From the NCBI GenBank assembly GCA_965233585.1, contig CBDDTI010000102.1, positions 1-47,711 of the forward strand: a stretch of 47,711 nucleotides of DNA, given 5' to 3'. The position numbers and the translations under genes are program-made. This stretch comes from a bacterium (lineage in GTDB: Bacteria > SAR324 > NAC60-12). Shown piece by piece: positions 3,582 through 30,241 of this stretch. Each line of letters starts with the position of its first letter. Within the stretch, counting starts at the first letter, position 1. The notes under the pieces are model-generated. The model saw only the letters and a list, made by a program, of their open reading frames with translations. It searched no databases and was not told where the DNA came from.

Positions 3582-6500
3582 CAATTTTTCAAGGTGATAC
3601 CTCATGATTGGCTCAGTTACTCAATAATATGAATGTTTGGATGGTACTCTATTGTGCCCAACAGCTTCTTGGTGTTGAAAAAAATCAAAAACCATTTCTC
3701 CACCTTTCTCTGAGTAAAGCTGGTCCATTTACTTTATAATATTTGTGATAAAGCTTTAAAATGCAAGGTTTTCCAAATAATTAGATGCCTTATTAAACCC
3801 TTATTAAAAAACAGCACTCAGACAATTTTTCAAGGTGGTACCTCATGAGTGGCTCAGTTACTCAATAATATAATTGTTTGGATGGTACTCTATTGTGAGC
3901 ACCAACTTGTGGGAGTGAAAAAAAAAACAAAACCCTTTCTCCACCTTTCTTTGGGTAAAGCTGGTCCTTTTACTTTAGAAAGCCATATTTATGTTAAAGC
4001 TTTAAAATGCAAGGTTTCCCAAATAATTAGATGCCTTATTAAACCCTTATTAAAAAACAGCACTCAGACAATTTTTCAAGGGGGTACCTCATGAGTGGCT
4101 CAGTTACTCAATAATATAATTGTTTGGATGGTACCCTATTGTGAGCACCAACTTTTTGGAGTGAAAAAAAACAAAACCCTTTCTCCACATTTCTTCGGGT
4201 AAAGCTGGTCCTTTTACTTTAGAAAACCATATTTGTGTTCAAGCTTTAAAATGCAAGGTTTCCCAAATAATTAGATGCCTTATTAAACCCTTATTAAAAA
4301 ACAGCACCCAAACAATTTTTCAAGGGGATACCTCATGATTGGCTCAGTTACTCAATAATATAATTGTTTGGATGGTACTCTATTGTGAGCACCAACTTTT
4401 GGGAGTGAAAAAAAAGCAAAACCCTTTCTCCATCTTTCTTTGGGTAAAGCTGATCCTTTCACTTTAGAAAGCCATATTTGTGTTAAAACTTTAAAATGCA
4501 AGGCTTTCCAAATAATTAGATACCTGAAAAAACCATAATTGGCTCAGTTACTCAATAATATAATTGTTTGGATGGTACTCTATTGTGAGCACCAACTTGT
4601 GGGAGTGAAAAAAGAAAAACAAAACCCTTTCTCCACCTTTCTTTGAGTAAATCTGGTGCCTTTACTTCAGAAAGCTATATTTGTGTTAAAGCTTTAAAAT
4701 GCAAGGTTTTCCAAATAATTAGATGCCTTATTAAACCCTTATTAAAAAACAACACCCAGACAATTTTTCAAGGGGATACCTCATGATTGACTCAGTTACT
4801 CAATAATATAATTGTTTGGATGGTACTCTATTGTGAGCACCAACTTGTGGGAGTTAAAAAAACAAAACCCTTTCTCCACCTTTCTTTGGGTAAAGCTGGT
4901 CCTTTTACTTTAGAAAGCCATATTCGTGTTAAAACTTTAAAATGCAAGGTTTTCCAAATAATTAGATACCTGAAAAAACCATAATTGGCTCAGTTACTCA
5001 ATAATATAATTGTTTGGATGGTACTCTATTGTGAGCACCAACTTTTTGGAGTGAAAAAAAGCATTAAAACCCTTTCTCCACCTTTCTTTGGGTAAAGCTG
5101 GTGCCTTTACTTTAGAAAGCTATATTTGTGTTAAAACTTTAAAATGCAAGGATTTCCAAATAATTAGGTACCTGAAAAAACCATAATTGGCTCAGTTACT
5201 CAATAATATAATTGTTTGGATGGTACTCTATTGTGAGCACCAACTTGTGGGAGTGAAAAAAAACAAAACCCTTTCTCCAACTTTCTTTGAGTAAATCTGG
5301 TGCCTTTACTTCAGAAAGCCATATTTATGTTAAAGCTTTAAAATGCAAGGTTTTCCAAATAATTAGATGCCTTATTAAACCCTTATTAAAAAACAGCACC
5401 CAGACAATTTTTCAAGGGGATACCTCATGATTGACTCAGTTACTCAATAATATAATTGTTTGGATGGTACTCTATTGTGAGCACCAACTTGTGGGAGTGA
5501 AAAAAACAAAACCCTTTCTCCACCTTTCTTTGGGTAAAGCTGATGCCTTTACTTTAGAAAGCCATATTTGTGTTAAAACTTTAAAATGCAAGGTTTTCCA
5601 AATAATTAGATACCTGAAAAAACCATAATTGGTTCAGTTACTCAATAATATAATTGTTTGGATGGTACTCTATTGTGAGCACCAACTTTTGGGAGTGAAA
5701 AAAAACATTTTCTTCACCTTTCTTTGGGTAAAGCTGATGCCTTTACTTTAGAAAGCCATATTTGTGTTAAAACTAAAATGCAAGGTTTTCCAAATAATTA
5801 GATGCCTTATTAAATCCTTATTAAAAAACAGCACCCAGACAATTTTTCAAGGGGATACCTCATGATTGGCTCAGTTACTCAATAATATAATTGTTTGGAT
5901 GGTACTCTATTGTGAGCACCAACTTTTGGGAGTTATAAAAAAAACAAAACCCTTTCTCCACCTTTCTTTGGGTAAATCTGGTGCCTTTACTTTAGAAAGC
6001 CATATTTGTGTTAAAGCTTTAAAATGTAAGGTTTTCCAAATAATTAGATGCCTTATTAAACCCTTATTTAAAAACAGCACCCAGACAATTTTTCAAGGGG
6101 ATACCTCATGATTGGCTCAGTTACTCAATAATATAATTGTTTGGATGGTACTCTATTGTGAGCACCAACTTTTGGGAGTGAAAAAAAAATTTCTCCACCT
6201 TTCTTTGGGTAAAGCTGGTCCTTTCACTTTAGAAAGCCATATTTATGCTAAAGCTTTAAAATGCAAGGTTTTCCAAATAATTAGATGCCTTATTAAACCC
6301 TTATTAAAAAACAGCACTCAGACAATTTTTCAAGGGGGTACCTCATGAGTGGCTCAGTTACTCAATAATATAACTGTCTGGATGGTACTCTATTGTGAGC
6401 ACCAAGTTTTTGGAGTAAAAAAAACATTTCTCCACCTTTCTTTGGGTAAAGCTGGTCCTTTTACTTTAGAAAGCTAATTTATGCTAAAGCTTTAAAATGC

Positions 6501-6660
6501 AAGGTTTTCCAAATAATTAGATGCCTTATTGAACCCTTATTAAAAAACAGCACTCAGACAATTTTTCAAGGGGGTACCTCATGAGTGGCTCAGTTACTCA
6601 ATAATATAATTGTTTGGATGGTACTCTATTGTGAGCACCAACTTTTGGGAGTGAAAAAAA
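3582..6660. repeat. Satellite array 1, ~13 monomers of ~244 bp (long) and ~200 bp (short)
   Basis: Tandem recurrence of TGGCTCAGTTACTCAATAATATAATTGTTTGGATGGTACTCTATTGTGAGCACCAAC. Short monomers end in GATACCTGAAAAAACCATAA. The first monomer is divergent. Confidence 0.97.
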
Positions 6661-7434
6661 TAAAAATAAATTAAAAGTAAATTGAAATCAATTGAAAGTA
6701 AATTGAAAGTAAATTAAAAGTAAATTGAAATCAATTGAAAGTAAATTGAAATCAATTGAAAGTAAATTAAAAGTAAATTAAAATCAATTGAAAGTAAATT
6801 GAAATCAATTGAAAGTAAATTAAAAGTAAATAGAAAGTAAATTGAAAGTAAATTGAAAGTAAATTAAAAGTAAATTGAAATCAATTGAAAGTAAATTGAA
6901 ATCAATTGAAAGTAAATTAAAAGTAAATAGAAATCAATTGAAAGTAAATTGAAATCAATTGAAAGTAAATTGAAAGTAAATTGAAAGTAAATTGAAAGTA
7001 AATTAAAAGTAAATTGAAATCAATTGAAAGTAAATTGAAATCAATTGAAAGTAAATTAAAAGTAAATTGAAATCAATTGAAAGTAAATTGAAATCAATTG
7101 AAAGTAAATTAAAAGTAAATTGAAAGTAAATTGAAAGTAAATTGAAAGTAAATTGAAATCAATTGAAAGTAAATTAAAAGTAAATTGAAATCAATTGAAA
7201 GTAAATTGAAAGTAAATTAAAAGTAAATTAAAAGTAAATTGAAATCAATTGAAAGTAAATTGAAATCAATTAAAAGTAAATTAAAAGTAAATTGAAAGTA
7301 AATTGAAAGTAAATTGAAATCAATTGAAAGTAAATTAAAAGTAAATTGAAATCAATTGAAAGTAAATTAATTAATTAAAAGTAAATTGAAATCAATTGAA
7401 AGTAAATTGAAATCAATTGAAAGTAAATTGAAAT
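6661..7434. repeat. AT-rich minisatellite built from 11-bp AAAGTAAATT(G/A) and 10-bp AAATCAATTG units
   Basis: About 770 bp made almost entirely of these two units, read directly. Confidence 0.97.
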
Positions 7435-7504
7435 CCTTTCTTAAGTTGATTGACCAAAAAATGTTGAGGGGGGGCAAAAAAAAGTGCGAGTTATAGAGTA
7501 TCCT

Positions 7505-7541
7505 CAAATTGTTTGGGGGGGGCCCCCCTCACACTAATCAG
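7505..7541 (+). other. Putative mobile-element terminus: G8C6 palindrome followed by TCACACTAATCAG
   Basis: AAATTGTT...hairpin...CCTCACACTA(A/G)TCAG recurs at 17360-17394 and 43920-43954. This copy sits at the switch from CpG-poor to CpG-rich DNA. Confidence 0.45.
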
Positions 7542-7616
7542 ATGCAAACATTAAGAGCTTTCATGGAATTTGTAACGGTTCGTTGTCATCCTGAGTTATC
7601 TAAAATCTGGTCTAAG

Positions 7617-8423
7617 GAGAAAACCTTTGAGCAACTGGTGACCGAGTTTTTGGGAAGAGAGGGCCAGCCCTTGCACTTGAAACCAGAATGTTTTGCCATC
7701 AGTGAGCCTGATGAACTGGAGCGTATCTGGGGTGTTCCAAAGCCTAGTGAAATGCACCTCCCAGAGCTACATTCTCAGAGATTTCAATTGTCTTGCGCAG
7801 CTATGTGTTTAGTCTTTTTCCCATCCCATTAAGATGTCGGTGAATGATTTCAACTAAGGTCCATGCAGAAATCCTTGCAAGGATACCGCCAACAGTTTCC
7901 CAATAAGAACATCTTTGACTTGTCACAGAACCCCCGGACCTATGGCCGGACAGACCTCAAAGACCACTCTATGCCGACTCTGGCTCGCAGTAGCCGACAT
8001 CTATGGCTCCTAGTCCCCAACTAGTTCTTGATTTCCGATCCTTTCCCAACTTCCGGTCCTTGACTTCCGTCCTTGCCCAACGTGCTCAGGTCAGAACCTT
8101 TGGGCCGGTGCTACACTGGTCGAGAGAAGCTTTTGAGTTTGGGGATGCCAGTATGGGGGCCTTATGCCGAAGCTGCTGGGGTGGAGGGGCCCTCAGCATA
8201 GTATCAGCATAGAAACAAATTATATTTTTTTTACAATTGGTTGATACCCAGTCTTATATAATTCACTATGAGTTCAAAAGCTGAGGACCGGGTTGACCTA
8301 GCCGATGATGGCACTTTCAGTGAGTCATGCCTTACCTCCATGACGGGCAACGCAATGCATTTACCAAGCGTTGGACTTTCAATGCTTGTCTCCAAATTGT
8401 GTGTCAAGAAAAATTCGAAGTGA
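7617..8423 (+). pseudogene. 5'-truncated, intron-containing C5 cytosine DNA methyltransferase gene, C-terminal half (exons 7617-7765, 7859-8005, 8090-8180/8183, 8286-8423)
   Basis: Spliced translation: EKTFEQLV...HLPESMQKSLQGYRQQFPNKNIFDLSQNPRTYGRTDLKDHSMPTLARSSRHLWSEPLGRCYTGREKLLSLGMPVWGPYAEAAG(V)DRVDLADDGTFSESCLTSMTGNAMHLPSVG...KNSK*. RCYTGREKLLSLGMP matches motif IX and GNAM matches motif X. All acceptors are AG|G and phases are consistent. Motifs I, IV, VI and VIII were not found upstream. Confidence 0.78.
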
Positions 8424-9003
8424 TATATACGTGCGCAACATTTCTCATGGTTGCATTAAACAACCTGCGGTGGAAGCTGGAGATAAAAAATGATGGGGTC
8501 CAGGGTTTTTGTTGTTTAGCTTGAGATGTTGTCCCCACTTCCTCATCGGAACTGTGCAAAGGATTGAACCCAATTTTTTTACCCTTACACGCAATTCCTT
8601 ACCCGCACAGTGGCATGTTGGAGGCAGTTTGCTGCGCGCCTCTGCTGTGCGGAGCAACTGCTGGGCCAGGGGGCCTGGCGCAGACGGGACAGGAAAGAGG
8701 GAACCTGAACTTTCAACATGTGGATTTATTTTCTTGTTTATTTCTGATTGCATCAGTCCGTCACGTTTGAATACCTATCCATCCGCAATCTGTTAATTTC
8801 AGGGTTCAAGAAATAAAAGTTAGCTGGCAGATTGAACTGTAGAAAACATAAGGAATAAACACTCACATGGCATTGCTGAACACAAATTGCACTTAGCCAA
8901 GGCTTCACGTCACTATGTTTCAGTCTCATATAAGACATAGAATTTCATTCCTAGTAGTGACCAAATGATATCAAATAACATGCTTACGTAAAACAACAAC
9001 ACG

Positions 9004-10263
9004 TTAATATAATAGTTCATTCTTGTCCAGCTGGTCCTTGGCAGTCTGGTAGGCAGCTGAGGTGATGTCAGTCAGCTTGCTCAGCTTTTTCTCAGCCTTG
9101 CTTTTTTGCTGGGCAATGCCAGCCATTTGAGACTCAAGCTTAGCATGTCTGATTTTGGCATCTTCACTGAGAGCATTTGCATGAGCCAGCAGCTTAGGCA
9201 CAATAGTGACCAACCTGAGTTTCCAATCTTTCCAGCCATCCTCAGGCCAGACTGAAGGCCACTCACCCCTGAAAAGCCTCAGCTCTTCCTCCATGTAATG
9301 CAGCACATAGCAGCCACAAGCATTGCTGCCCACAGGCTGAGTGGCAATGTTGCTGGGGGGGGAGATTGAAATCAGGGTCAATCAACTGGCCCATGAAGAT
9401 CTGCTGAGGATGAGATTCTTCATGCTCTTTGCTGAGGGAGTCATACCTCCTCCAAGTGATGGGTTGCCCAGGCCCTGCCCTCTGAGCTGCCAGTAAGGTC
9501 CAATGAAACTGAGAATACACTGGAACCAAAAGAAGCTTGCAGTGCTGAGACCAGCTTTTCTTGATGCCTTCCTTGAAGCCATCCAGCTGCTCAGGGTTGC
9601 CATCATTTTCAAGGATCAGCTTGCTGAGGATTGGGTCCACACAGTGAACTCCTAAGACTTCTGGGAGGGCAACATTAGCCTTGTCAAAGCACCATCTGAG
9701 AAGGGCCCAGCCAAGCCAAAGGTGCTGATCCTCCATCTCAGGGATTTCCTTAGGGCATGGGATCACTGAGTGGATACTCCACTCCTTTGGGCTCAAGCCA
9801 ACCTCATCTTCAGGATTGCAGCTCAGCTGGCTCAGCATGAGGCTGAGATCTCTCTTGCTGAGCTGGGTCCACTTAGGCCACTTCACCTTCAGAACTTTAG
9901 CCTTAGAGCTCTTGATCTCCACCCATTCAGGCTCAACATGATATGCACCTGAGTCAGTCACACAGATGTATGTAGCTGGTGTGCTGCCATAAGTGAGCTT
10001 GCCATGCTTGCCAAAGCTGAGCCTGCCTGCTGCTTCTGAAACAATCACAACTTCTTGATTGAAAAGAGGATCATCAAATTCAATTTCAGCAGGTGGTGCT
10101 TGCTCAGGTGGAGGCAATGGTGGTTTCTCAGAAAGGTCCTGCTTGGAGCCAGCCTTGACTAAGGCTTTAGCTGAAGCTTGTTTTTCAGCTTTTTTCTTCA
10201 AGCTCTTGAGCTTAGCTGAGGGCTTGGTCTTGCAGGAAGCTTTGTTCTTGATGGAAGCTTTGA
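9004..10263 (-). pseudogene. Ulp1/C48 SUMO-protease domain region, frameshifted at a G8 run (9355-9362); probable C-terminal part of the transposase ORF
   Basis: LLLVPVYSQFHWTLL (His codon 9503-9505), RRYDSL (Asp 9440-9442) and TQPVGSNACGCYVLHYME (Gln, Cys 9316-9318) give the H-D-(Q)-C order of peptidase C48. Removing one G joins the 312-aa and 125-aa ORFs. Confidence 0.85.
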
Positions 10264-10283
10264 AGGCTAGGCTGAGTTTTTTC

Positions 10284-13268
10284 TTAGGCTAGGCTGAGTT
10301 TTTTCTTAGGCTTGCTTTTCTGCCTGGCCTCAGGCTGGAGCTCAGCCAAAGCTTCATCTCTGCTCATGCCTGATAGTTTCTCAGCCACTGTTTGCACAAG
10401 TTTGCTCTTGTGCTTCCTCAGCAGCTTTCTGAGCTTCCTCTGCCTGGCCCTCTTAACAACATCTTTATCTTTCTTGCTTTGATACTCAGCAGTCCCCATT
10501 CTTCTGATTTGGGCTCTTCTGAGGGAAGGATGAATCCTCAGGGACAATGAGTTTTGAAGTTCTAGCTCCAAGTCCTCAGCAATGGCATCAGTGATCTCTG
10601 GCTGGAGGTCTTCCTCAGTGCAGTCCTTCTCATCCTCAGGGTTGTAATAGTCCCAGATTTGGAGGTCTGAGATGTGCTTCGCTGTGCTGCTCAGACTCCA
10701 ATCTGCCTTTGCAGGCACTCCCTCAGCATCTCTCCACTTGAGCCTGTCTCTGAGCCACTCAGGACTGTACCTCTTGGTGCCAACCTCTAAGCCAATCTCC
10801 TTAGCCCAGCTCTGAGACAGGAGTTCTACAAGCCTCCCTGATGCTGGATCAGGCCTGTAGACCAGGATCCCATTCCTCACTGCAGCTCTGAGGACCCATT
10901 CATCTTTGAGGTTCTTCTCAGCCATTGCTTCTTGAGCTGCCACAACTGCAGTGACAATTTCTAAGGGGCCAACTTTCCAAACTGAGTGCTCCACCTTTCT
11001 CTGGGTCTGCCACTGGGCTCTGAGATCAGTGAGCTTGTGTCTCACTAAGGCCTTGAACTGCTTAGCAAAATCAGTGTCAGTGATTTGCAACTTAGAGGTG
11101 CACTTCTCAGCCACAAGGCAGCTTAACTGATTTGCTAAGGCCATGGACTCAGTGGCTGAGTCACTGAACACTGAGGAGAAGCAATCCCTCATCCAAATGG
11201 ATGCAGGGTACTGGGCAGCTTGAGCCTGGATGCTCCAGCTGAGGATAACTGAGTCCACATTGGCTGCAGGCTGCTGCATGATCTCAACCTTAGACATGAG
11301 CTCAGGGTGGCTCTGCCTCAGCCTCCTGTAGGGCAGCATGACTCTCCCAGCTGAGCTTCCCTGAGTCCTGGTGATGACCTTATCACCAATTTTGAAGGTT
11401 TCATCACTGAGCCAGGTGCCACTCTCTGAGATGTTGCTCAGTCTGGCCCATTCACCTGGCACAACTAACAGCCCTTTGCCAACTGAGCCAATGATCTCCT
11501 GAGACTCATCGCCATAAACTGAGTGCAGGAGCTGCCTGGCTTCATATGTGATCCTGTATCTATCCTCCCCTGAGATTCCAATGAGAGTGGTGGATCCTGG
11601 CTGAGGCAAAGCTGGCTTGGCTGCTGGTGCTGAGGGCTGGGTTGAGCTTGCTGCATCTTTCTGAATGCTGGCTTCTGCATCTTGCTGAGGGCTGGCTGGG
11701 ACCATTTGCTCAGCATCTCCTGGAGCAGGGCTGGCTGAACCACAGAGACATTGCTCAGATTGGCTGGGTGGAGGTGAATCAAAGCTGCCCTGCTTCACCA
11801 GAGAATCTTGCTCAGGTTGGCTGGCTGGAGGGCTGCTGGCTGCTGATGCAAAGCTGAGCTGCCTCACTACTGACTCCTTGGGAGATGACTCAAAGCTGAA
11901 CTTTCTTTGAGGCTGAGGTGTGGATGGTACAATGGGCCCTATCAACATGTCAGGCCCATGCTCTGAGTGCATGGCTTCACTGATGGCTAGCCTGACTGAA
12001 GAGTAGTCCTTGACATCAGCTGAGGCATGCAGTTCCTCCTCAGCAAAGACAGCTCTTCTACCTGTAGCCTTAGCCCACAAAGGCACCTGATCAGAGAATC
12101 CAATGACCAACTGAGACCTTGCTGAAATGAACTGGGCAGGGCTGCTGAGCCTGTTGCTGTCAGCTAATGTCTGCTGAGATGCACATGTTGCTAGCCACAA
12201 TGTGTGGTCAAACTCTTGCCAGGTCAGCTTGGTCCTGGTTTGGGCTTCTACCTGGGAGATGTTTGTAACTAGCTCAGTGGACATGTACTTAGCATCAAGC
12301 CATTTGACCAGCTGAGCCTTAGTCTTTCTCCTGTAAGAGTCACTGTTGCAGAGCTTCTCTTTCCTGACTTCTCTTTCCTTAGCATCTGCCAGAAGCTCAG
12401 CCCTCTTTAGTGCAGGTATCTCAGGCACCTGAGCATTGTTTCTAAGCTCATTGGCTGTGAGCTGAAGCCTACCAAGATACTCAGCAAGCAAATCCTGCTT
12501 AGCAATGGTGTGGCCACATGCTCTTTCAATGCTGAGCCACTGCTTCATTTTTGAGATGATGTCTGAGAATGGAACCTTTCTGCCAGCTCCTGAGGCTCTT
12601 TTCCTCTTGCTCAACTGATGTTTATTCTTGCTTTTGAGATCCTTCTCAGCCACAAGTTTTTCCCAATGCCCTTCCTTAGACAAGATGTTCTTCAGAGCAT
12701 CCTTTCTGATGCCATACTTCTCCACTTGAGCTGCCCAGAAATCTTGTAGACTGCTGAAAGTGTCTTTGACTGCCTTCATCTCCTGGCAATATTTCAACTT
12801 AGTAGCAGCTGAGACTTCAACCCTTTTATTGTATGAGCCTGGTTTTTTTCTGTTTGTTGACTGAGGGCTGGCTTTTGGAGATTTGGATGGCTCTCTAGTC
12901 ACCAATCTCTTTCTTTTCTGTGCTGCCTCAATAAGCTCAGGTTCATTTGTGGCTTGTGAAGCTTCAAACTCAGCTTGCTGTCTGAGTGCTTCATTCTTTT
13001 CTCTGAGAGCATCGTCCTGAAATCTGCCAAGCCTCTGCCTTTTGAAAGGCTGAAGTTGCAGGTGCAATGGCACTGGCTGAGCTTCTTTCTTCTGGCTTGC
13101 TGAGCCAAAGAACTTGCCCAGGCCATACTGTACCTTTCCTGAGCTGGCTGGTGAAGACTCAGGGCTGCCAGTGGCACCCTTCTCAGGTGTAGCTTCAGCT
13201 CCTCCACCTCTAGCTCTGACTTGCTGGGTCACCTTAGTCAGCAAAAAGCCACCATGAAGGTAGCACAT
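10284..13268 (-). mobile_element. pogo-superfamily (CENP-B HTH + DDE_1) transposase ORF, DD35D, 994 aa
   Basis: KRKRASGAGRKVPF..MKQWLSIERACG resembles the CENP-B/Tc5 HTH. IGFSDQVPLW (D393), GEDRYRIT, QQPAANVD, IWMRDCF (D695) and CTSKLQITDTDFAKQFK (D731) align with the pogo motifs NxDETP, GxEKxRxT, QxKAWMD, LxxDxF and TxxLQPLDxxxNKPFK. There are 35 residues between D695 and D731. Confidence 0.82.
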
Positions 13269-13269
13269 T

Positions 13270-15207
13270 AGTGGCTCAGTTACTCAATAATATAATTGTT
13301 TGGATGGTACTCTATTGTGAGCACCAACTTTTGGGATTGAAAAAAACAAAACCCTTTCTCCACCTTTCTTTGGGTAAAGCTGGCCCTTTCACTTTAGAAA
13401 GCCATAGTTGTGTTAAAATTTTAAAATGCAAGGTTTCCCAAATAATCAGATGCCTTATTAAACCCTTATTAAAAAACAGCATCCAGACAATTTTTCAAAG
13501 GGATACCTCATGATTGGCTCAGTTACTCAATAATATAATTGTTTGGATGGTACTCTATTGTGAGCACCAACTTTTGGGAGTAAAAAAAACAAAACCATTT
13601 CTCCACCTTTCTTTGGGTAAAGCTGGTCCTTTCACTTTAGAAAGCCATAGTTGTGTTAAAATTTTAAAATGCAAGGTTTCCCAAATAATCAGATGCCTTA
13701 TTAAACCTTTATTAAAAACAGCATCCAGACAATTTTTCAAAGGGATACCTCATGATTGGCTCAGTTACTCAATAATATAATTGTTTGGATGGTACACTAT
13801 TGTGAGCACCAACTTTTGGGAGTGAAAAAAAAGCAAGACCCTTTCTCCACCTTTCTTTGGGTAAAGCTGGTCCTTTCACTTTAGAAAGCCATAGTTGTGT
13901 TAAAACTTTAAAATGTAAGGTTTCCCAAATAATCAGATGCCTTATTAAACCCTTATTAAAAAACAGCATCCAGACAATTTTTCAAATGGATACCTCATGA
14001 GTGGCTCAGTTACTCAATAATATAATTGTCTGGATGGTACTCTATTGTGAGCACCAACTTTTGGGAGTAAAAAAAACAAAACCCTTTCTCCACCTTTCTT
14101 TGGGTAAAGCTGGTCCTTTCACTTTAGAAAGCCATAGTTGTGTTAAAATTTTAAAATGCAAGGTTTCCCAAATAATCAGATGCCTTATTAAACCCTTATT
14201 AAAAAACAGCATCCAGACAATTTTTCAAAGGGATACCTCATGATTGGCTCAGTTACTCAATAATATAACTGTCTGGATGGTACTCTATTTGAGCACCAAT
14301 GGAGTACTCTACCTTTCTTTGGGTGAGCACTTTAGAAAGCCAACTTTTGGGAGTCCAAAAAAAAAGCAAGACCCAATTTTTCAAAGGGATACCTCATGAT
14401 TGGCTCAGTTACTCAATAATATAATTGTTTGGATGGTACTCTATTGTGAGCACTGAAAAAAAAAGCAAGACCCTTTCTCCACCTTTCTTTGGGTAAAGCT
14501 GGTCCTTTCAGAAAGCCATAGTTGTGTTAAAACTTTAAAATGCAAGGTTTCCCAAATAATCAGATGCCTTATTAAACCCTTATTAAAAAACAGCATCCAG
14601 ACAATTTTTCAAAGGGATACCTCATGAGTGGCTCAGTTACTCAATAATATAATTGTTTGGATGGTACTCTATTGTGAGCACCAACTTTTGGGATTGAAAA
14701 AAACAAAACCCTTTCTCCACCTTTCTTTGGGTAAAGCTGGTCCTTTCACTTTAGAAAGCCATAGTTGTGTTAAAATTTTAAAATGCAAGGTTTCCCAAAT
14801 AATCAGATGCCTTATTAAACCCTTATTAAAAAACAGCATCCAGACAATTTTTCAAAGGGATACCTCATGATTGGCTCAGTTACTCAATAATATAATTGTT
14901 TGGATGGTACTCTATTGTGAGCACCAACTTTTGGGAGTGAAAAAAAAGCAAGACCCTTTCTCCACCTTTCTTTGAGTAAATCTGGTGCCTTTACTTCAGA
15001 AAGCTATATTTGTGTTAAAACTTTAAAATGCAAGGTTTCCCAAATAATTAGATGCCTTATTAAACCCTTATTAAAAAACAGCACCCAGACGGTACCTCAT
15101 GAGTGGCTTTGTTACTCAATAATATAATTGTTTGGATGGTACTCTATTGTGAGCACCAACTTTGGGGGGTGAAAAAAAACAAAACCCTTTCTCCACCTTT
15201 CTTTGGG
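13270..15207. repeat. Satellite array 2, ~8 monomers including one scrambled monomer (~14285-14390)
   Basis: Same monomer as array 1, with diagnostic CCATAGTTGTG/ATAATCAGATG variants. Begins abruptly immediately upstream of the transposase ATG. Confidence 0.96.
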
Positions 15208-15584
15208 CAAAGGCTCCAGGATGTCTGAGATGTCCAAGCCCTGAAGGACATTGAGTTCCTCCTGCCTGCTGAGAGCTCCTTTGAAGTAATGAACTGCTGG
15301 GCTGTAGTAATTGAGCCACTGCTCAAAGGATTTGCTGAGCTTCTTCATCTCCTAGCTGGTTCAATGAAAGATCCCAAAAGATATAAACATAATTTAACTA
15401 TACAATGAATTGTAATTATAATGAGTTTACCTCAAGCAGCTCAGATGCACAAAATTATACTCAAGTCCCAACAAGCTTCATCCCTGAGCAGCTGCATCTG
15501 AGTGACCAGGGCTCTCAAGTTACTGAGTGGCTTCAAAAGGATGCTCAGGGTGAAGAGGAGCAAAGAAGTGAATGCAAGCCATCC
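15188..15584 (-). pseudogene. Degenerate or partial paralog of the 15973-16862 gene, running into the satellite
   Basis: Encodes NLRALVTQMQLLRDEACW and EMKKLSKSFEQWLNYYS..RQEELNVLQGLDISDILEP. These are similar to ELSTLVQVLQNLRDDLWY and QHWLSAYS..KAERLNVLSSIDLSDVAEP of the neighbouring gene. Confidence 0.4.
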
Positions 15585-19425: not shown

Positions 19426-20634
19426 TCAGGTATTACCTGAGTCTCCCTCTGGCTTCTCAATCCTTTGCTTCTTGCTGAGACCAGGGGGCTCAGAAACTTG
19501 ATCTTCAGGAATTGGCTTCTTACCATCTTTCTGCCTTTTCTGATGCAGCTCCAGCAAAGCCTCAGGGCTCAGACCAATAGCATCCATCTGACTGAGAATC
19601 TGCTGAGCCTGCTCTTCTTTTAGCTTCCCCAGTTCCTCCTGAGCCTGTGCCATCTCTTCCTCCTCCTTCTTCTGAGCCAGGAAACCTTTCAGCTTCTCCT
19701 GAGCATCTAAGATGTCAAGCCTGAGCTGACCTAAGACACCTTGCTCCTCAGCCATCTGCTGGGCATCTGTGGAGATCCTCTGCATAGTGGCATCCTGAGC
19801 AGCATAGGCTTGCTCAACAAGCAGAAGCTTCTGAGAGATGATAGCTTCCAGCTCCTGCACATCTGAGACATCAGGACTAAGGTCCATCCCCTTCAGCTGA
19901 TTGATAGCATGCCTGATGCCATTCTCAGGGTCAATCTGAGCAAGCAATGACTTGCAGTACCCCTGAGCAAAGGTGCTGTCATCAGTCTGAGCAGCCATAG
20001 CAAAGGTAGCAGCTTTAGGTGGCTGAGAAGGTTCAGCATCAGGTTCAGCTTGAGGTTGCTGACAACCAGGAGGCTTAGCAGGCTTAGGTGGCTTCAGTTT
20101 GTGCTTGAACTGAGCTGTCCAGTAAGGTTTTGAGACAAACTTCTGCCAAGGCAATGGGGTCATGTTGAGAATCACCTGATAATACTGAGCAATGACTCTC
20201 TGAGGCCACCCATTGACATCCTGCAAGGTTGCAAAAGATGTGAAGAAAACTTTCAATCAGATATTAAAACTTAGTAATTAATATTTTTTCAATTAATCAA
20301 TTAATTGATGAAGGCCATGCACCCATGCTCAGAGACACAAAGAACAAATGCATGCACACATGTTCAAACCCATGTCCTTGCAGTCTTTGCACCCATTCTG
20401 AAATGGGATCCTGCTGAGTTTCACCTTAGCATTGCACCCAGGACAAGCAACATCAGGCTCTCCATCATAGCGAGGGTAGCTGATGATCCTCTCAGGGTTT
20501 GATCCCTGAGCAAAGAGGTCATCCACTGAGGGAAAGCTTTGTGGAATGAGCTTGAGCTGAGCATGGCCACCCTTGACAGTAAATTCCATGCCAGATGGAA
20601 CTAATTCTGAGTGATCCTTAGTGTTCCTTGCCAT
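19426..20634 (-). CDS. Two-exon unknown protein, family B (exon 1 20634-20425, exon 2 20220-19426)
   Basis: Same exon 1 and intron as 21-1328. Exon 2 (276-aa ORF) has a diverged middle and a shorter tail. Confidence 0.6.
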
Positions 20635-21165: not shown

Positions 21166-22464
21166 TTACTCAATCTCCTCCTCAACAGTGACCTCCACCA
21201 TCTCAGAAGACTGCTGAGGCTCTTCAAGTCTTGCCTTCTTGGTGGCTGGACCACAAGACTCAAACTCAGCACTGGCAGCCTCAGAAGGAACTGCAGCTTC
21301 AGGCTTGCTGGTACCAGGAGGCTCAGGAACTTGATCTTCAGGAATTGGCTTCTTACCATCTTTCTGCCTTTTCTGATGCAGCTCCAGCAAAGCCTCAGGG
21401 CTCAGACCAATAGCATCCATCTGACTGAGAATCTGCTGAGCCTGCTCTTCTTTTAGCTTCCTCAGTTCCTCCTGAGCCTGTGCCATCTCTTCCTCCTCCT
21501 TCTTCTGAGCCACTCTAGCATCAACCCTTTCCTGAGCTTCAATGGTGCCAAGCCTGAGCTCAATCAAGGCAGCTTGCTCCTTAGACATCTTGTCAGCATC
21601 TTGCAGGAGCATAGTCATAGTCTCATCCTGAGCTGCATAGGCTTTGTCAATGAGCATAAGCCTCTTAGAGATGATGTCTCTCAGTCCCTCCAAATCTGAG
21701 AGATCAGAACCCTCCAAGTCCATTGCCAGATGCTGAGAGATGGCATCTGCCATGCTGTTCTGAGGGTCAATATGAGCAAGAATTGACTTGCAATACCCCC
21801 CAGCAAAGAAGGGCTGAGCCTTCTCAGCACCTGCAGCCTCAAGTAACTGCTCAGGTTCAACATCTTGAGGTGACTGAGAATGTTCAGCACCTTGAAGTTG
21901 CTGACAACAAGGAGGCTCAGCAGGCTCAGCTGGCCTCTGCTTGTGCTGAAACTGAGCTGCCCCAAAAGATTCTGAGACTAACTTCTGCCAAGGCAATGGG
22001 GTCATGTTGAGAATCACCTGATAATACTGAGCAATGACTCTCTGAGGCCACCCATTGACATCCTGCAAGGTTGCAAAAGATGTGAAGAAAACTTTCAATC
22101 AGATATTAAAACTTAGTAATTAATATTTTTTCAATTAATCAATTAATTGATGAAGGCCATGCACCCATGCTCAGAGACACAAAGAACAAATGCATGCACA
22201 CATGTTCAAACCCATGTCCTTGCAGTCTTTGCACCCATTCTGAAATGGGATCCTGCTGAGTTTCACCTTAGCATTGCACCCAGGACAAGCAACATCAGGC
22301 TCTCCATGATAGCGAGGGTAGCTGATGATCCTCTCAGGGTTTGATCCATCACCAAAGATGTCATCCACTGAGGGAAAGCTTGGCCAACTGAGTTTGAGCT
22401 GAGCATGGCCACCTCTGATAGTATAATCCATGCCATCTGGGACTGAGTCAGAGAGCTTTGCCAT
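21166..22464 (-). CDS. Family A two-exon gene, intact (exon 1 22464-22267, exon 2 22062-21166)
   Basis: 310-aa and 97-aa ORFs with the same splice signals as 21-1328. Confidence 0.6.
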
Positions 22465-22894: not shown

Positions 22895-25800
22895 CAATTT
22901 TTCAAGGTGATACCTCATGATTGGCTCAGTTACTCAATAATATGAATGTTTGGATGGTACTCTATTGTGCCCAACAGCTTCTTGGTGTTGAAAAAAATCA
23001 AAAACCATTTCTCCACCTTTCTCTGAGTAAAGCTGGTCCATTTACTTTATAATATTTGTGATAAAGCTTTAAAATGCAAGGTTTTCCAAATAATTAGATG
23101 CCTTATTAAACCCTTATTAAAAAACAGCACTCAGACAATTTTTCAAGGTGGTACCTCATGAGTGGCTCAGTTACTCAATAATATAATTGTTTGGATGGTA
23201 CTCTATTGTGAGCACCAACTTTTGGGGGTGAAAAAAAAACAAAACCCTTTCTCCACCTTTCTTTGGGTAAAGCTGGTCCTTTTACTTTAGAAAGCCATAT
23301 TTATGTTAAAGCTTTAAAATGCAAGGTTTCCCAAATAATTAGATGCCTTATTAAACCCTTATTAAAAAACAGCACCCAGACAATTTTTCAAGGGGATACC
23401 TCATGATTGGCTCAGTTACTCAATAATATAATTGTTTGGATGGTACTCTATTGTGAGCACCAACTTGTGGGAGTGAAAAAAACAAAACCCTTTCTCCACC
23501 TTTCTTTGGGTAAAGCTGGTCCTTTTACTTTAGAAAGCCATATTTATGTTAAAGCTTTAAAATGCAAGGTTTCCCAAATAATTAGATGCCTTATTAAACC
23601 CTTATTAAAAAACAGCACTCAGACAATTTTTCAAGGGGGTACCTCATGAGTGGCTCAGTTACTCAATAATATAATTGTTTGGATGGTACTCTATTGTGAG
23701 CACCAACTTTTTGGAGTGAACAAAAACAACAAAACCCTTTCTCCACATTTCTTTGGGTAAAGCTGGTCCTTTTACTTTAGAAAACCATATTTGTGTTAAA
23801 GCTTTAAAATGCAAGGTTTCCCAAATAATTAGATGCCTTATTAAACCCTTATTAAAAAACAGCATCCAGACAATTTTTCAAAGGGATACCTCATGATTGG
23901 CTCAGTTACTCAATAATATAATTGTTTGGATGGTACTCTATTGTGAGCACCAACTTTTGGGAGTGAAAAAAAAGCAAAACCCTTTCTCCATCTTTCTTTG
24001 GGTAAAGCTGATCCTTTCACTTTAGAAAGCCATATTTGTGTTAAAAATTTAAAATGCAAGGCTTTCCAAATAATTAGATACCTGAAAAAACCATAATTGG
24101 CTCAGTTACTCAATAATATAATTGTTTGGATGGTACTCTATTGTGAGCACCAACTTGTGGGAGTGAAAAAAGAAAAACAAAACCCTTTCTCCACCTTTCT
24201 TTGAGTAAATCTGGTGCCTTTACTTCAGAAAGCTATATTTGTGTTAAAGCTTTAAAATGCAAGGCTTTCCAAATAATTAGATGCCTTATTAAACCCTTAT
24301 TAAAAAACAGCACCCAGACAATTTTTCAAGGGGATACCTCATGATTGACTCAGTTACTCAATAATATAATTGTTTGGATGGTACTCTATTGTGAGCACCA
24401 ACTTGTGGGAGTTAAAAAAAAACAAAACCCTTTCTCCACCTTTCTTTGGGTAAAGCTGGTCCTTTTACTTTAGAAAGCCATATTCGTGTTAAAACTTTAA
24501 AATGCAAGGTTTTCCAAATAATTAGATACCTGAAAAAACCATAATTGGCTCAGTTACTCAATAATATAATTGTTTGGATGGTACTCTATTGTGAGCACCA
24601 ACTTTTTGGAGTGAAAAAAAACAACAAAACCCTTTCTCCACATTTCTTTGGGTAAAGCTGGTCCTTTTACTTTAGAAAACCATATTTGTGTTAAAGCTTT
24701 AAAATGCAAGGTTTCCCAAATAATTAGATGCCTTATTAAACCCTTATTAAAAAACAGCATCCAGACAATTTTTCAAAGGGATACCTCATGATTGGCTCAG
24801 TTACTCAATAATATAATTGTTTGGATGGTACTCTATTGTGAGCACCAACTTTTGGGAGTGAAAAAAAAGCAAAACCCTTTCTCCATCTTTCTTTGGGTAA
24901 AGCTGATCCTTTCACTTTAGAAAGCCATATTTGTGTTAAAAATTTAAAATGCAAGGCTTTCCAAATAATTAGATACCTGAAAAAACCATAATTGGCTCAG
25001 TTACTCAATAATATAATTGTTTGGATGGTACTCTATTGTGAGCACCAACTTTTGGGAGTGATAAAAAAAACAAAACCCTTTCTCCACCTTTCTTTGGGTA
25101 AATCTGGTGCCTTTACTTTAGAAAGCCATATTTGTGTTAAAGCTTTAAAATGTAAGGTTTTCCAAATAATTAGATGCCTTATTAAACTCTTATTAAAAAA
25201 CAGCACCCAGACAATTTTTCAAGGGGATACCTCATGATTGACTCAGTTACTCAATAATATAATTGTTTGGATGGTACTCTATTGTGAGCACCAACTTGTG
25301 GGAGTTAAAAAAACAAAACCCTTTCTCCACCTTTCTTTGGGTAAAGCTGGTCCTTTTACTTTAGAAAGCCATATTCGTGTTAAAACTTTAAAATGCAAGG
25401 TTTTCCAAATAATTAGATACCTGAAAAAACCATAATTGGCTCAGTTACTCAATAATATAATTGTTTGGATGGTACTCTATTGTGAGCACCAACTTTTTGG
25501 AGTGAAAAAAAACAACAAAACCCTTTCTCCACCTTTCTTTGGGTAAAGCTGGTGCCTTTACTTTAGAAAGCTATATTTGTGTTAAAACTTTAAAATGCAA
25601 GGATTTCCAAATAATTAGGTACCTGAAAAAACCATAATTGGCTCAGTTACTCAATAATATAATTGTTTGGATGGTACTCTATTGTGAGCACCAACTTGTG
25701 GGAGTGAAAAAAAACAAAACCCTTTCTCCAACTTTCTTTGAGTAAATCTGGTGCCTTTACTTCAGAAAGCTATATTTGTGTTAAAGCTTTAAAATGCAAG

Positions 25801-28800
25801 GTTTTCCAAATAATTAGATGCCTTATTAAACCCTTATTAAAAACCAGCACCCAGACAATTTTTCAAGGGGATACCTCATGATTGACTCAGTTACTCAATA
25901 ATATAATTGTTTGGATGGTACTCTATTGTGAGCACCAACTTGTGGGAGTGAAAAAAAACAAAACCCTTTCTCCACCTTTCTTTGGGTAAAGCTGATGCCT
26001 TTACTTTAGAAAGCCATATTTGTGTTAAAACTTTAAAATGCAAGGTTTTCCAAATAATTAGATACCTGAAAAAACCATAATTGGTTCAGTTACTCAATAA
26101 TATAATTGTTTGGATGGTACTCTATTGTGAGCACCAACTTTTGGGAGTGAAAAAAAAAACATTTTCTTCACCTTTCTTTGGGTAAAGCTGATGCCTTTAC
26201 TTTAGAAAGCCATATTTGTGTTAAAACTAAAATGCAAGGTTTTCCAAATAATTAGATGCCTTATTAAATCCTTATTTAAAAACAGCACCCAGACAATTTT
26301 TCAAAGGGATACCTCATGAGTGGCTCAGTTACTCAATAATATAATTGTTTGGATGGTACTCTATTGTGAGCACCAACTTTTGGGAGTGATAAAAAAAACA
26401 AAACCCTTTCTCCACCTTTCTTTGGGTAAATCTGGTGCCTTTACTTTAGAAAGCCATATTTGTGTTAAAGCTTTAAAATGTAAGGTTTTCCAAATAATTA
26501 GATGCCTTATTAAACCCTTATTAAAAAACAGCACCCAGACAATTTTTCAAGGGGATACCTCATGATTGGCTCAGTTACTCAATAATATAATTGTTTGGAT
26601 GGTACTCTATTGTGAGCACCAACTTTTGGGAGTGAAAAAAAACCTTTCTCCACCTTTCTTTGGGTAAAGCTGGTCCTTTTACTTTAGAAAGCCATATTTA
26701 TGCTAAAGCTTTAAAATGCAAGGTTTTCCAAATAATTAGATGCCTTATTAAACCCTTATTAAAAAACAGCACTCAGACAATTTTTCAAGGGGGTACCTCA
26801 TGAGTGGTTCAGTTACTCAATAATATAATTGTCTGGATGGTACTCTATTGTGAGCACCAACTTTTGGGAGTAAAAAAAACAAAACCCTTTCTCCACCTTT
26901 CTTTGGGTAAAGCTGGTCCTTTCACTTTAGAAAGCCATAGTTGTGTTAAAATTTTAAAATGCAAGGTTTTCCAAATAATTAGATGCCTTATTAAACCCTT
27001 ATTAAAAAACAGCATCCAGACAATTTTTCAAGGTGGTACCTCATGAGTGGCTCAGTTACTCAATAATATAATTGTTTGGATGGTACTCTATTGTGAGCAC
27101 CAACTTTTGGGGGTGAAAAAAAAACAAAACCCTTTCTCCACCTTTCTTTGGGTAAAGCTGGTCCTTTTACTTTAGAAAGCCATATTTATGTTAAAGCTTT
27201 AAAATGCAAGGTTTCCCAAATAATTAGATGCCTTATTAAACCCTTATTAAAAAACAGCACCCAGACAATTTTTCAAGGGGATACCTCATGATTGGCTCAG
27301 TTACTCAATAATATAATTGTTTGGATGGTACTCTATTGTGAGCACCAACTTGTGGGAGTGAAAAAAACAAAACCCTTTCTCCACCTTTCTTTGGGTAAAG
27401 CTGGTCCTTTTACTTTAGAAAGCCATATTTATGTTAAAGCTTTAAAATGCAAGGTTTCCCAAATAATTAGATGCCTTATTAAACCCTTATTAAAAACAGC
27501 ACTCAGACAATTTTTCAAGGGGGTACCTCATGAGTGGCTCAGTTACTCAATAATATAATTGTTTGGATGGTACTCTATTGTGAGCACCAACTTTTTGGAG
27601 TGAAAAAAAACAACAAAACCCTTTCTCCACATTTCTTTGGGTAAAGCTGGTCCTTTTACTTTAGAAAACCATATTTGTGTTAAAGCTTTAAAATGCAAGG
27701 TTTCCCAAATAATTAGATGCCTTATTAAACCCTTATTAAAAAACAGCATCCAGACAATTTTTCAAAGGGATACCTCATGATTGGCTCAGTTACTCAATAA
27801 TATAATTGTTTGGATGGTACTCTATTGTGAGCACCAACTTTTGGGAGTGAAAAAAAAGCAAAACCCTTTCTCCATCTTTCTTTGGGTAAAGCTGATCCTT
27901 TCACTTTAGAAAGCCATATTTGTGTTAAAAATTTAAAATGCAAGGCTTTCCAAATAATTAGATACCTGAAAAAACCATAATTGGCTCAGTTACTCAATAA
28001 TATAATTGTTTGGATGGTACTCTATTGTGAGCACCAACTTTTGGGAGTGATAAAAAAAAACAAAACCCTTTCTCCACCTTTCTTTGGGTAAATCTGGTGC
28101 CTTTACTTTAGAAAGCCATATTTGTGTTAAAGCTTTAAAATGTAAGGTTTTCCAAATAATTAGATGCCTTATTAAACTCTTATTAAAAAACAGCACCCAG
28201 ACAATTTTTCAAGGGGATACCTCATGATTGACTCAGTTACTCAATAATATAATTGTTTGGATGGTACTCTATTGTGAGCACCAACTTGTGGGAGTTAAAA
28301 AAAACAAAACCCTTTCTCCACCTTTCTTTGGGTAAAGCTGGTCCTTTTACTTTAGAAAGCCATATTCGTGTTAAAACTTTAAAATGCAAGGTTTTCCAAA
28401 TAATTAGATACCTGAAAAAACCATAATTGGCTCAGTTACTCAATAATATAATTGTTTGGATGGTACTCTATTGTGAGCACCAACTTTTTGGAGTGAAAAA
28501 AAACAACAAAACCCTTTCTCCACCTTTCTTTGGGTAAAGCTGGTGCCTTTACTTTAGAAAGCTATATTTGTGTTAAAACTTTAAAATGCAAGGATTTCCA
28601 AATAATTAGGTACCTGAAAAAACCATAATTGGCTCAGTTACTCAATAATATAATTGTTTGGATGGTACTCTATTGTGAGCACCAACTTGTGGGAGTGAAA
28701 AAAAACAAAACCCTTTCTCCAACTTTCTTTGAGTAAATCTGGTGCCTTTACTTCAGAAAGCTATATTTGTGTTAAAGCTTTAAAATGCAAGGTTTTCCAA

Positions 28801-30241
28801 ATAATTAGATGCCTTATTAAACCCTTATTAAAAAACAGCACCCAGACAATTTTTCAAGGGGATACCTCATGATTGACTCAGTTACTCAATAATATAATTG
28901 TTTGGATGGTACTCTATTGTGAGCACCAACTTGTGGGAGTGAAAAAAAACAAAACCCTTTCTCCACCTTTCTTTGGGTAAAGCTGATCCTTTCACTTTAG
29001 AAAGCCATATTTGTGTTAAAAATTTAAAATGCAAGGCTTTCCAAATAATTAGATACCTGAAAAAACCATAATTGGCTCAGTTACTCAATAATATAATTGT
29101 TTGGATGGTACTCTATTGTGAGCACCAACTTGTGGGAGTGAAAAAAGAAAAACAAAACCCTTTCTCCACCTTTCTTTGAGTAAATCTGGTGCCTTTACTT
29201 CAGAAAGCTATATTTGTGTTAAAGCTTTAAAATGCAAGGCTTTCCAAATAATTAGATGCCTTATTAAATCCTTATTAAAAAACAGCACCCAGACAATTTT
29301 TCAAAGGGATACCTCATGAGTGGCTCAGTTACTCAATAATATAATTGTTTGGATGGTACTCTATTGTGAGCACCAACTTTTGGGAGTGATAAAAAAAACA
29401 AAACCCTTTCTCCACCTTTCTTTGGGTAAATCTGGTGCCTTTACTTTAGAAAGCCATATTTGTGTTAAAGCTTTAAAATGTAAGGTTTTCCAAATAATTA
29501 GATGCCTTATTAAACCCTTATTAAAAAACAGCACCCAGACAATTTTTCAAGGGGATACCTCATGATTGGCTCAGTTACTCAATAATATAATTGTTTGGAT
29601 GGTACTCTATTGTGAGCACCAACTTTTGGGAGTGAAAAAAAACCTTTCTCCACCTTTCTTTGGGTAAAGCTGGTCCTTTTACTTTAGAAAGCCATATTTA
29701 TGCTAAAGCTTTAAAATGCAAGGTTTTCCAAATAATTAGATGCCTTATTAAACCCTTATTAAAAAACAGCACTCAGACAATTTTTCAAGGGGGTACCTCA
29801 TGAGTGGTTCAGTTACTCAATAATATAATTGTCTGGATGGTACTCTATTGTGAGCACCAACTTTTGGGAGTAAAAAAAACAAAACCCTTTCTCCACCTTT
29901 CTTTGGGTAAAGCTGGTCCTTTCACTTTAGAAAGCCATAGTTGTGTTAAATTTTTAAAATGCAAGGTTTCCCAAATAATCAGATGCCTTATTAAACCCTT
30001 ATTAAAAAACAGCATCCAGACAATTTTTCAAAGGGATACCTCATGATTGGCTCAGTTACTCAATAATATAATTGTTTGGATGGTACTCTATTGTGAGCAC
30101 CAACTTTTGGGAGTGAAAAAAAAAGCAAGACCCTTTCTCCACCTTTCTTTGGGTAAAGCTGGTCCTTTCACTTTAGAAAGCCATAGTTGTGTTAAAACTT
30201 TAAAATGCAAGGTTTCCCAAATAATCAGATGCCTTATTAAA
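22895..30241. repeat. Satellite array 3 (~7.3 kb) with ~3.0-kb higher-order repeat
   Basis: Same monomer as array 1. Variant monomers recur at 26320/29320 and 26804/29804. Confidence 0.97.

Follow-up and report, generated by a model that had tools for sequence, protein, structure and literature searches.

The window analysed here comprises positions 1-47,711 of contig CBDDTI010000102.1, part of a 12-Mb assembly that is filed as bacterial. On its minus strand, at 9004-13268, lies what is probably an inactivated copy of a multicopy gene family of Symbiodiniaceae that encodes a composite transposase, with a DDD core of Tc1/mariner/pogo type joined to an Ulp1/SENP-like protease. The copy is spread over three reading frames. 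The first, which is 999 amino acids (aa) long from stop to stop (10284..13283) and 994 aa when counted from the ATG at 13268-13266, holds the transposase part (10287..13268) and closes at a stop codon at 10284-10286. The second, a stop-to-stop frame of 341 aa (9263..10288), covers a Lys-rich linker together with a small beta domain and the protease's N-terminal half, the one with His and Asp. The third, again measured from stop to stop (125 aa; 9004..9381), carries the Gln/Cys half of the protease and a coiled-coil helix.

The first two frames are parted by an exact 22-bp tandem duplication (10264..10307). The 22-mers at 10264-10285 and 10286-10307 are identical letter for letter, and Tandem Repeats Finder reports the unit at 10264-10312 with a period of 22, 2.2 copies and 100% matches. 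The duplication shifts the frame by +1 and creates a stop: the TAA that closes the 994-aa frame stands at the start of the second copy. When a single copy is kept, the frame continues ..KPKKKLSLAFKASIKNK.. into the 341-aa frame. A preliminary description of the locus had traced the stop of the 994-aa frame to this duplication, and both the repeat finder and the letter-by-letter comparison confirm it.

The same description had the protease split by one extra G in a run of eight (G8, 9355..9362). The frame is indeed broken there, inside the protease, by a different event. Both paralogs in the assembly, and contigs of all four public runs compared, carry two more bases at this site (GA or GG, found at 9354 in all four runs), implying that the window copy, which has 2 nt fewer than all its relatives, lost 2 nt and did not gain one G; the effect on the frame is that of one extra G. 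The His/Asp half of the protease (FHWTLL, 9491-9508; RRYDSL, 9434-9451) lies upstream of the run in one frame; downstream of it, in a second frame, comes the Gln/Cys half SNIATQPVGSNACGCYV (9304-9354, with the motif TQPVGSNACG).

The 3' end of the gene is also missing. Homology to every relative ends at about 9020, and the window copy is without a conserved Cys-rich tail of some 100 residues. Contigs of all four public runs have a loose end at 9020, from which their minus-strand consensus continues as ..NSVRFTWKNL.., the family tail. The window copy is dead in three ways: by the 22-bp duplication, by the 2-nt loss and by 3' truncation. The duplication is missing from both paralogs (on contigs C313 and C352) and from contigs of X1, X3 and the RNA library X15, the three public runs with coverage there (run X17 has none at this site), a comparison in which contigs, which drop rare variants, show presence and not absence. 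The X1 contig that bridges the site equals the window over 369 letters, apart from the missing 22 bases.

Downstream of the truncation, about 1.6 kb (7400-9020) match nothing else in the assembly except for some 150 bases of an 11-bp repeat at the 7400 edge. An 11-bp microsatellite (AAAGTAAATTG; about 72 copies, 6663-7433) sits between a satellite array and the unique sequence 3' of the element.

Relatives Encode Both Domains in One Chain

In intact relatives, the transposase and the Ulp1-like protease share one intronless reading frame of about 1,390-1,430 aa. The 12-Mb assembly contains three protease-bearing copies and two 5' fragments, all with frame breaks or truncations of their own. The C313 copy is 91% identical to the window copy and the C352 copy 75%. 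C352 retains an open frame of 731 aa, which runs from the end of the core through a Lys-rich linker (..KKKLSLAFKHSLKNK..) and both protease halves into the Cys-rich tail. The protein P0163 (1,387 aa), which is 96% identical to the window core, is uninterrupted, and at the sites of the two lesions its sequence is ..KPKKKLSLAFKPSIKNK.. and ..LPPLSNIATQPVGSNACGCYV..; the same holds for P0172 (1,430 aa), tail included, in being uninterrupted. The read-through peptide predicted from the window matches P0163 and the C352 frame word for word, and because these are independent proteins, the repaired frame is not due to chance. RNA-library contigs bridge the linker without the duplication.

We scanned 254 proteins with two custom profiles, one for the transposase core and one for the protease. 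The core was matched in 222 of them, the protease in 51 and both in 44, and in all 44 two-domain proteins the core precedes the protease. Both domains are present in every one of the 23 scanned relatives of at least 1,300 aa, and in 28 of the 30 of at least 1,200 aa; most of the shorter proteins look like fragments of gene models. The hidden single-chain fusion of about 1,410 aa that had been proposed from the window is thus borne out by the lengths of P0163 and P0172 and by the 23 long relatives. The search for uninterrupted copies suggested at the same time found P0163, P0172, the 731-aa frame of C352 and public-run contigs that read through.

Intact members close with a CxxCx5CxxC motif, followed by a Ser/Ala-rich tail (C352/L003, 1185-1500 on the minus strand; the C terminus of P0172). 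At the four cysteine columns, each covered by 14-18 sequences, 14-15 sequences have the cysteine, a pattern that would be possible for a zinc-binding module.

The N-Terminal Part Resembles Tc1/mariner-Type Transposases

We modelled the 999-aa frame with AlphaFold2 from a 90-sequence alignment. The predicted local distance difference test score (pLDDT) was 76.2 for the model as a whole; the structured parts exceed 90, and residues 442-574 stay below 50. All parts of the model are encoded on the minus strand. Residues ~150-330 (12294..12836) form a helical region that is probably a paired helix-turn-helix DNA-binding domain, with weak CENP-B-like evidence. The first part of the predicted catalytic core (residues ~340-440; 11964..12266) consists of beta1-beta2 and includes D398 (codon 12090-12092; motif FSDQ). 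A disordered, low-complexity insertion rich in Ser, Pro and Gln (residues 442-574; 11562..11960) then splits the RNase H-like fold, and the second part of the core (residues ~575-860; 10704..11561) contains a beta-rich insert followed by D700 (codon 11184-11186; motif MRDCF) and D736 (codon 11076-11078; motif QITDTD).

These three aspartates are near-invariant (D398 in 66 of 67 aligned residues, D700 in 81 of 83, D736 in 80 of 81), and D738 (74/81) and K744 (78/81) are also conserved. In the model, D398 lies in beta1 (strand E393-403), beta4 ends in D700, and the helix after it has D736 at its start. The 35 residues between D700 and D736 are exactly the DD35D spacing.

A structural alignment of the transposase model against 48,161 chains, made with VIA-align, placed Metnase, Mos1 and Sleeping Beauty above all other folds. 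The top match was the Metnase transposase domain (3k9j; Z 11.4, 184 residues aligned at a root-mean-square deviation (rmsd) of 3.6). Next came Mos1 mariner, both in its paired-end complex (3hos; Z 11.2), which aligns with residues 154-844, DNA-binding part included, and in a second structure (4mdb; Z 11.2), then Sleeping Beauty (5cr4; Z 10.1) and retroviral integrases (Z 8-9.3). Residues 150-330 matched CENP-B(1-129) bound to DNA (1hlv) with Z 6.8, the rmsd of 17 being owed to a two-lobe hinge. VIA-align scores below about 8 may reflect a common arrangement, and the transposase matches lie above that level and the CENP-B match below it. Taken together, the modelled fold and the conserved triad support the view of the N-terminal part as an RNase H-like DDD transposase of the IS630-Tc1-mariner/pogo type. 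As to other origins, Foldseek of the 999-aa model found no match at E<=0.001 among viral structures (BFVD), and there is accordingly no sign of a viral source. A phmmer search of the 731-aa C352 frame against PDB sequences returned nothing relevant to transposases.

Within the disordered insertion the ratio of nonsynonymous to synonymous substitution rates (Ka/Ks) is 0.5-0.8, compared with 0.2-0.3 in the flanking domains. Its length varies in frame, by 6, 33 and 9 nt between copies, and RNA-library contigs show a 33-nt skip and a 3-nt loss.

The C-Terminal Domain Resembles Ulp1/SENP Proteases

All four catalytic codons of a protease of this type are present in the window, split over two frames: His (9503-9505) and Asp (9440-9442) in the 341-aa frame, Gln (9337-9339) and Cys (9316-9318) in the 125-aa frame, all on the minus strand. 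In a 21-member protease alignment (A2), His and Asp are conserved in 21 of 21 sequences, Cys in all 19 that have a residue at that position and Gln in 13 of 21. A profile built from these 21 members matched solved CE-clan proteases, led by NopD (8oi3, E 3.5e-9), XopD (9.5e-5) and SENP1 (1.1e-4) and including RickCE, SENP2/5, ChlaDub2 and a fungal Ulp1-like protease. In the profile matches, NopD and XopD among them, the catalytic residues established for those enzymes line up with our His, Asp, Gln and Cys.

The AlphaFold2 model of the protease (pLDDT 83.1) gave 52 Foldseek matches at E<=0.001; XopD came first (3.7e-7), and NopD, NEDP1/Den1, SENP1/2/5/7 and Ulp1 (1euv) were among the others. 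Profile, predicted fold and conserved residues all identify the C-terminal domain as an Ulp1/SENP-like cysteine protease of clan CE. The top matches, of the XopD/NopD/SENP/NEDP1 type, act on SUMO, ubiquitin or NEDD8, and going by these nearest structures any of the three could be the substrate. The domain is like Ulp1/SENP/NEDP1, XopD and NopD in its fold, its profile alignment and its conserved triad; it differs from them in being joined to a transposase, and in that most members fall under the Pfam cut-off for Peptidase_C48. One distant relative, P0030 (1,410 aa), passes that cut-off, with 24.3 bits against 20.7. Three others (P0162, P0165 and P0177) stay below it, and two of 57 members match at E<=10. 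UniRef labels two relatives [quoted passage not shown].

A Likely Relationship to pogo

Transposases of the pogo group have a DDxD site, in which the third residue is Asp and roughly 29-40 residues separate it from the second. The present family, with Asp in third place and a 35-residue spacing, fits that description. The motif T-S-x-L-Q-x-x-D-x6-F-K around D736 resembles the pogo signature. In the ESM Atlas the ten best named clusters all carry DDE_1, often together with HTH_Tnp_Tc5 (best 0.92, 187 shared features), although a feature neighbourhood of this kind is a lead only. Pfam models detected HTH_Tnp_Tc5 weakly in two of 57 members (best E 0.008) and CENP-B_N in one of 57. We use the label pogo because of the motif spacing, the language-model neighbourhood, the weak CENP-B-like fold match and the motif around D736. 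On this basis the family is most likely a very divergent relative of pogo, as distinct from a demonstrated member of Pfam DDE_1.

The claims first made about the protein's domains fared unevenly. That it contains a DD35D transposase is upheld by the 35-residue spacing, the conserved Asp triad and the Mos1/Metnase-like fold. For its assignment to a pogo lineage, the spacing and the ESM neighbours speak in favour, and the formal DDE_1 profile match fails. For the C48 protease, the CE-clan fold and catalytic set hold, and the Pfam cut-off is passed by P0030 alone. The expectation that HMMER would find HTH_Tnp_Tc5, DDE_1 and Peptidase_C48 in one chain was not realised: DDE_1 appeared nowhere, HTH_Tnp_Tc5 in the two members just mentioned and C48 above its cut-off only in P0030.

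A Large Family with Selection between Lineages

To judge its size, we searched the family in full with HMMER against 1.84 billion representatives clustered at 50% identity. The search matched 1,001 representatives at E<=0.001, of which 558 reach E<=1e-10 and 170 reach E<=1e-30; conservation is highest over residues ~540-1000. Substitution patterns indicate that purifying selection acts between lineages: comparison of the window copy with C352 gave Ka/Ks values of 0.22 for the N-terminal part and 0.31 for the core. Between the two closest copies Ka/Ks is higher, at about 0.5-0.6, as expected if decay followed duplication.

Contigs from two coral metatranscriptome libraries cover all 30 bins of the stretch, which suggests that the family is transcribed; RNA-library contigs may contain DNA. 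P0172 matched one metagenome contig of 4.9 kb, whose flank is too short for defining ends. In a search of genome contigs for related loci, the only match was a spurious one of 36 residues in a Bacillota metagenome-assembled genome.

The two 5' fragments (C313:18008-18568 and C352:55155-57006) share their contigs with full-length copies, which suggests local duplication or nested decay.

Discussion

A number of results weigh against reading this family as a pogo-type transposon with a protease of its own, and they bear on several alternatives. The simplest of these, that the transposase and the protease are two adjoining genes which only appear to be fused, draws on the different frames in which the window halves sit. 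We regard it as extremely improbable, given that the junction is crossed without interruption in C352, in P0163 and P0172 and in all relatives of at least 1,300 aa, and that RNA-library contigs span the linker without the duplication. A more serious concern is that assembly artefacts, or changes private to this assembly's collapsed copy, account for one or more of the three lesions, and that the true locus is intact. The duplication, the 2-nt loss and the 9020 junction are all missing from the contigs of the four public runs, and the X1 bridging contig is otherwise the same as the window over its 369 letters. Against this, such contigs lose rare variants and prove presence only, the public runs may come from samples other than the source, and the other copies in the assembly bear frame breaks of their own at different places, so that decay is normal here; we therefore think an intact locus possible and, on balance, unlikely. 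The protein profiles raise a separate question. Peptidase_C48 matches neither the window frames nor the intact frame of C352, P0163 and P0172 fall below its cut-off, and a search of the whole assembly with PF02902 found nothing. For the N-terminal ~1,000 residues there is no Pfam family at useful E-values. DDE_1 (PF03184) matched none of three window frames (E<=1), none of three paralog frames (E<=0.1) and none of 101 relatives in all (0/26, 0/57 at E<=10 and 0/18), nor was there a match to PF03184 anywhere in the assembly. Foldseek of the 999-aa model against the PDB gave nothing at E<=0.001, integrase cores reaching E 0.06-0.4 with HIV integrase best at 0.06, and the family profile found no transposase among PDB sequences. 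The 302 residues from D398 to D700, made up of the disordered insertion of ~130 residues and the beta-rich insert, go far beyond the usual values for Tc1/mariner/pogo. The enzyme might thus belong outside pogo, to a separate deep branch of IS630-Tc1-mariner or to a different group of RNase H-like transposases or integrases, and have reached DD35D by convergence. Such a placement would account for the failure of DDE_1 and for the atypical core insertions, and the best solved structures are mariner and Tc1 enzymes; no pogo catalytic domain is among the fold matches, so that the fold search cannot separate these branches. Opposed to it are the ten language-model neighbours that carry DDE_1, several of them with HTH_Tnp_Tc5, the Asp third residue at 35-residue spacing, the weak CENP-B-type signals in the N-terminal region and the likeness of the D736 motif to the pogo signature. 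We lean away from a non-pogo origin while giving it appreciable weight.

The other question is whether the family is mobile at all. Scans around the window and C352 copies turned up no inverted repeats at the termini; the pairs that did appear are short and either chance-like or AT-rich. The copies cease to resemble one another no more than about 45 nt from the start codon and some 40 nt past the stop codon, and at the decayed or short-contig copies we saw neither a target-site (TA) duplication nor an empty site. In a by-eye comparison of the flanks, made without a formal search, inverted repeats, a spliced-leader relic and a poly(A) tail were not evident. Because no ends or duplications were found, mobility by transposition is inferred rather than demonstrated; segmental duplication or retroposition could instead have spread the copies. 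On that account the copies would be a host multigene family, domesticated or never mobile, in which a transposase-derived DNA-binding/nuclease module with a deSUMOylase or deubiquitinase serves a cellular task; its multiplication would be through segmental duplication and retroposition, which are common in dinoflagellates. Besides the missing repeats, duplications and defined ends, several observations would suit such a family: the copies on three contigs have similar surroundings, with 243-bp satellite arrays and members of the same gene families as neighbours; selection between lineages is purifying; and RNA-library contigs cover all 30 bins. However, all five copies in the assembly are broken or truncated, the 1,001 representatives at 50% identity amount to a very large diversity, the frame is intronless over 4.3 kb, and the DDD triad is kept in 97-99% of members. 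Many decayed copies, large diversity, an intronless frame and a conserved triad are points that favour a transposon, and active copies alongside decayed ones make the usual picture of a transposon family. Purifying selection between lineages fits a transposon as well. A host family accordingly seems to us rather improbable, and a transposon the better reading.

If the family is a transposon, it departs from known relatives in several ways. Tigger proteins are ~492 aa long (300-685), in elements of ~2.8 kb with ~20-bp inverted repeats and TA duplications (PMC9219625). The present family shares with pogo/Tigger the RNase H-like DDD site with Asp as its third residue, the 35-residue gap between the second and third, the Mos1/Metnase/Sleeping Beauty fold, a helical N-terminal region with weak CENP-B-like signals and language-model neighbours that carry DDE_1. 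In contrast, at ~1,400 aa it is three times longer, it has no match to the DDE_1 hidden Markov model, its core is split by the disordered insertion and a beta-rich insert, an Ulp1-like protease and a Cys-rich tail have been added, and no inverted repeats or TA duplication were found. SETMAR/Metnase, which provides the best structural match, is likewise a transposase of Tc1/mariner type joined to a protein-modification enzyme. There, however, the partner is an N-terminal methyltransferase (a chromatin-modifying SET domain) in a single-copy domesticated primate gene, whereas here it is a C-terminal protease in a multicopy family.

The joining of a transposase to an Ulp1 domain is not itself new, and Zisupton carries Ulp1. 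Ginger1 transposases have a C-terminal Ulp1 or OTU domain and Mutator-like elements (MULEs) an Ulp1 domain, and a role for the ubiquitin/SUMO pathway in transposition has been proposed (PMC2836005). In the same account Ginger1 is Gypsy-integrase-like, with an H2C2 finger and a GPY/F motif, and MULEs are of Mutator type (PMC2836005). The protein described here resembles Ginger1, Mutator-like elements and Zisupton in combining a DDE transposase with a C-terminal Ulp1 (C48) domain in one chain. It differs from Ginger1 and MULEs in its transposase module, whose best folds are Tc1/mariner enzymes. In the literature covered, which excludes subscription journals and Repbase reports, we found no paper on a fusion of a pogo or Tc1/mariner transposase with Ulp1 or on this Symbiodiniaceae family. 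The fusion of transposase and Ulp1 as such is therefore known; its pairing with an enzyme of Tc1/mariner/pogo type is one that we have not found in print.

From the N terminus, the helical region is followed by the split DDD core (D398, D700, D736), the Lys-rich linker, the CE protease and, in intact members, the CxxCx5CxxC tail. The protein would bind the ends of the element and cut and paste it through the DDD site. The tethered protease would remove a ubiquitin-like modifier (SUMO, ubiquitin or NEDD8) at the site of transposition, its target being the transposase itself or host chromatin or repair factors, by analogy with proposals made about the Ulp1 and OTU domains that other transposases carry. 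The preliminary description had suggested that the protease might counter SUMO-dependent silencing or process the protein itself; the closest folds, among which are proteases for ubiquitin and NEDD8 as well as SUMO, do not single out SUMO. A still broader idea, which we put forward only tentatively and think less likely than not to hold in full, is that this is a still-active pogo-like branch found throughout Symbiodiniaceae, always equipped with its own modifier protease and zinc-type tail and expressed in coral holobionts, and that the protease is needed for transposition in the largely histone-poor chromatin of dinoflagellates.

If that broader idea is true, this would be the first element of Tc1/mariner/pogo type with an Ulp1 domain, and its protease might, for example, strip the transposase, or factors involved in silencing or repair, of SUMO or ubiquitin. 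Ulp1 and OTU proteases have joined transposases repeatedly (Ginger1, Mutator-like elements, Zisupton), and to our knowledge nobody has shown what the protease does. The Tc1/mariner/pogo class has the best structural and biochemical models, and so could offer a tractable system for asking why transposons recruit deSUMOylases and deubiquitinases. The transposon reading would also supply a function for the very many Symbiodiniaceae proteins that are filed only as "unnamed protein product" or "ubiquitin-like protease domain", and would mean that coral symbionts have a DNA transposon in their genomes that may be active. As regards annotation, it matters that Pfam misses this family and that the contig is probably dinoflagellate DNA within an assembly filed as bacterial.

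Host and Genomic Surroundings

The host assignment draws on several observations. Among the 120 matches listed, all organism names are Symbiodiniaceae (Symbiodinium natans, Symbiodinium sp. CCMP2592, Durusdinium trenchii and Effrenium voratum), and the RNA runs that contain the stretch are coral metatranscriptomes. The long frames of the window all lie on one strand, with 243-bp satellites between repeated genes. All contigs of the assembly have a G+C content near 40%, and the present one is most likely dinoflagellate DNA that was binned with a bacterial genome of similar G+C.

A 243-bp satellite array (13272..15212) begins a few bases upstream of the start codon and is given here as context, not as a part shown to belong to the element. 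Arrays of the ~243-bp satellite, with 202-bp and ~445-490-bp variants, occupy 3582-6660, 13272-15212, 22895-30241 and 34674-41772 of the window, and the satellite has 286 matches on seven contigs of the assembly. In both the window and C313 only a few bases part an array from the start codon, and the monomer ends in sequence similar to the opening codons of the gene; a related satellite lies 3' of the gene in C352 and on the metagenome contig L007. The arrays on the two sides of the element are direct and not inverted, and the satellite separates other genes of the window too, so that it cannot be assigned to the element.

The window also contains repeated frames of 276-310 aa on the minus strand (21-950, 19426-20256, 21166-22098, 31112-32035, 32945-33877 and 45986-46816), with smaller ones adjoining. 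Eight repeated frames of the window had no significant match in Pfam, only weak coiled-coil-like hits. A 20-bp unit, GCACAAGTCCAAGACCATGG, occurs in 2.2 exact copies at each of 1420, 20726, 30672, 32505 and 47286. The window as a whole is made of large repeated gene units that it has in common with C313 and C352.

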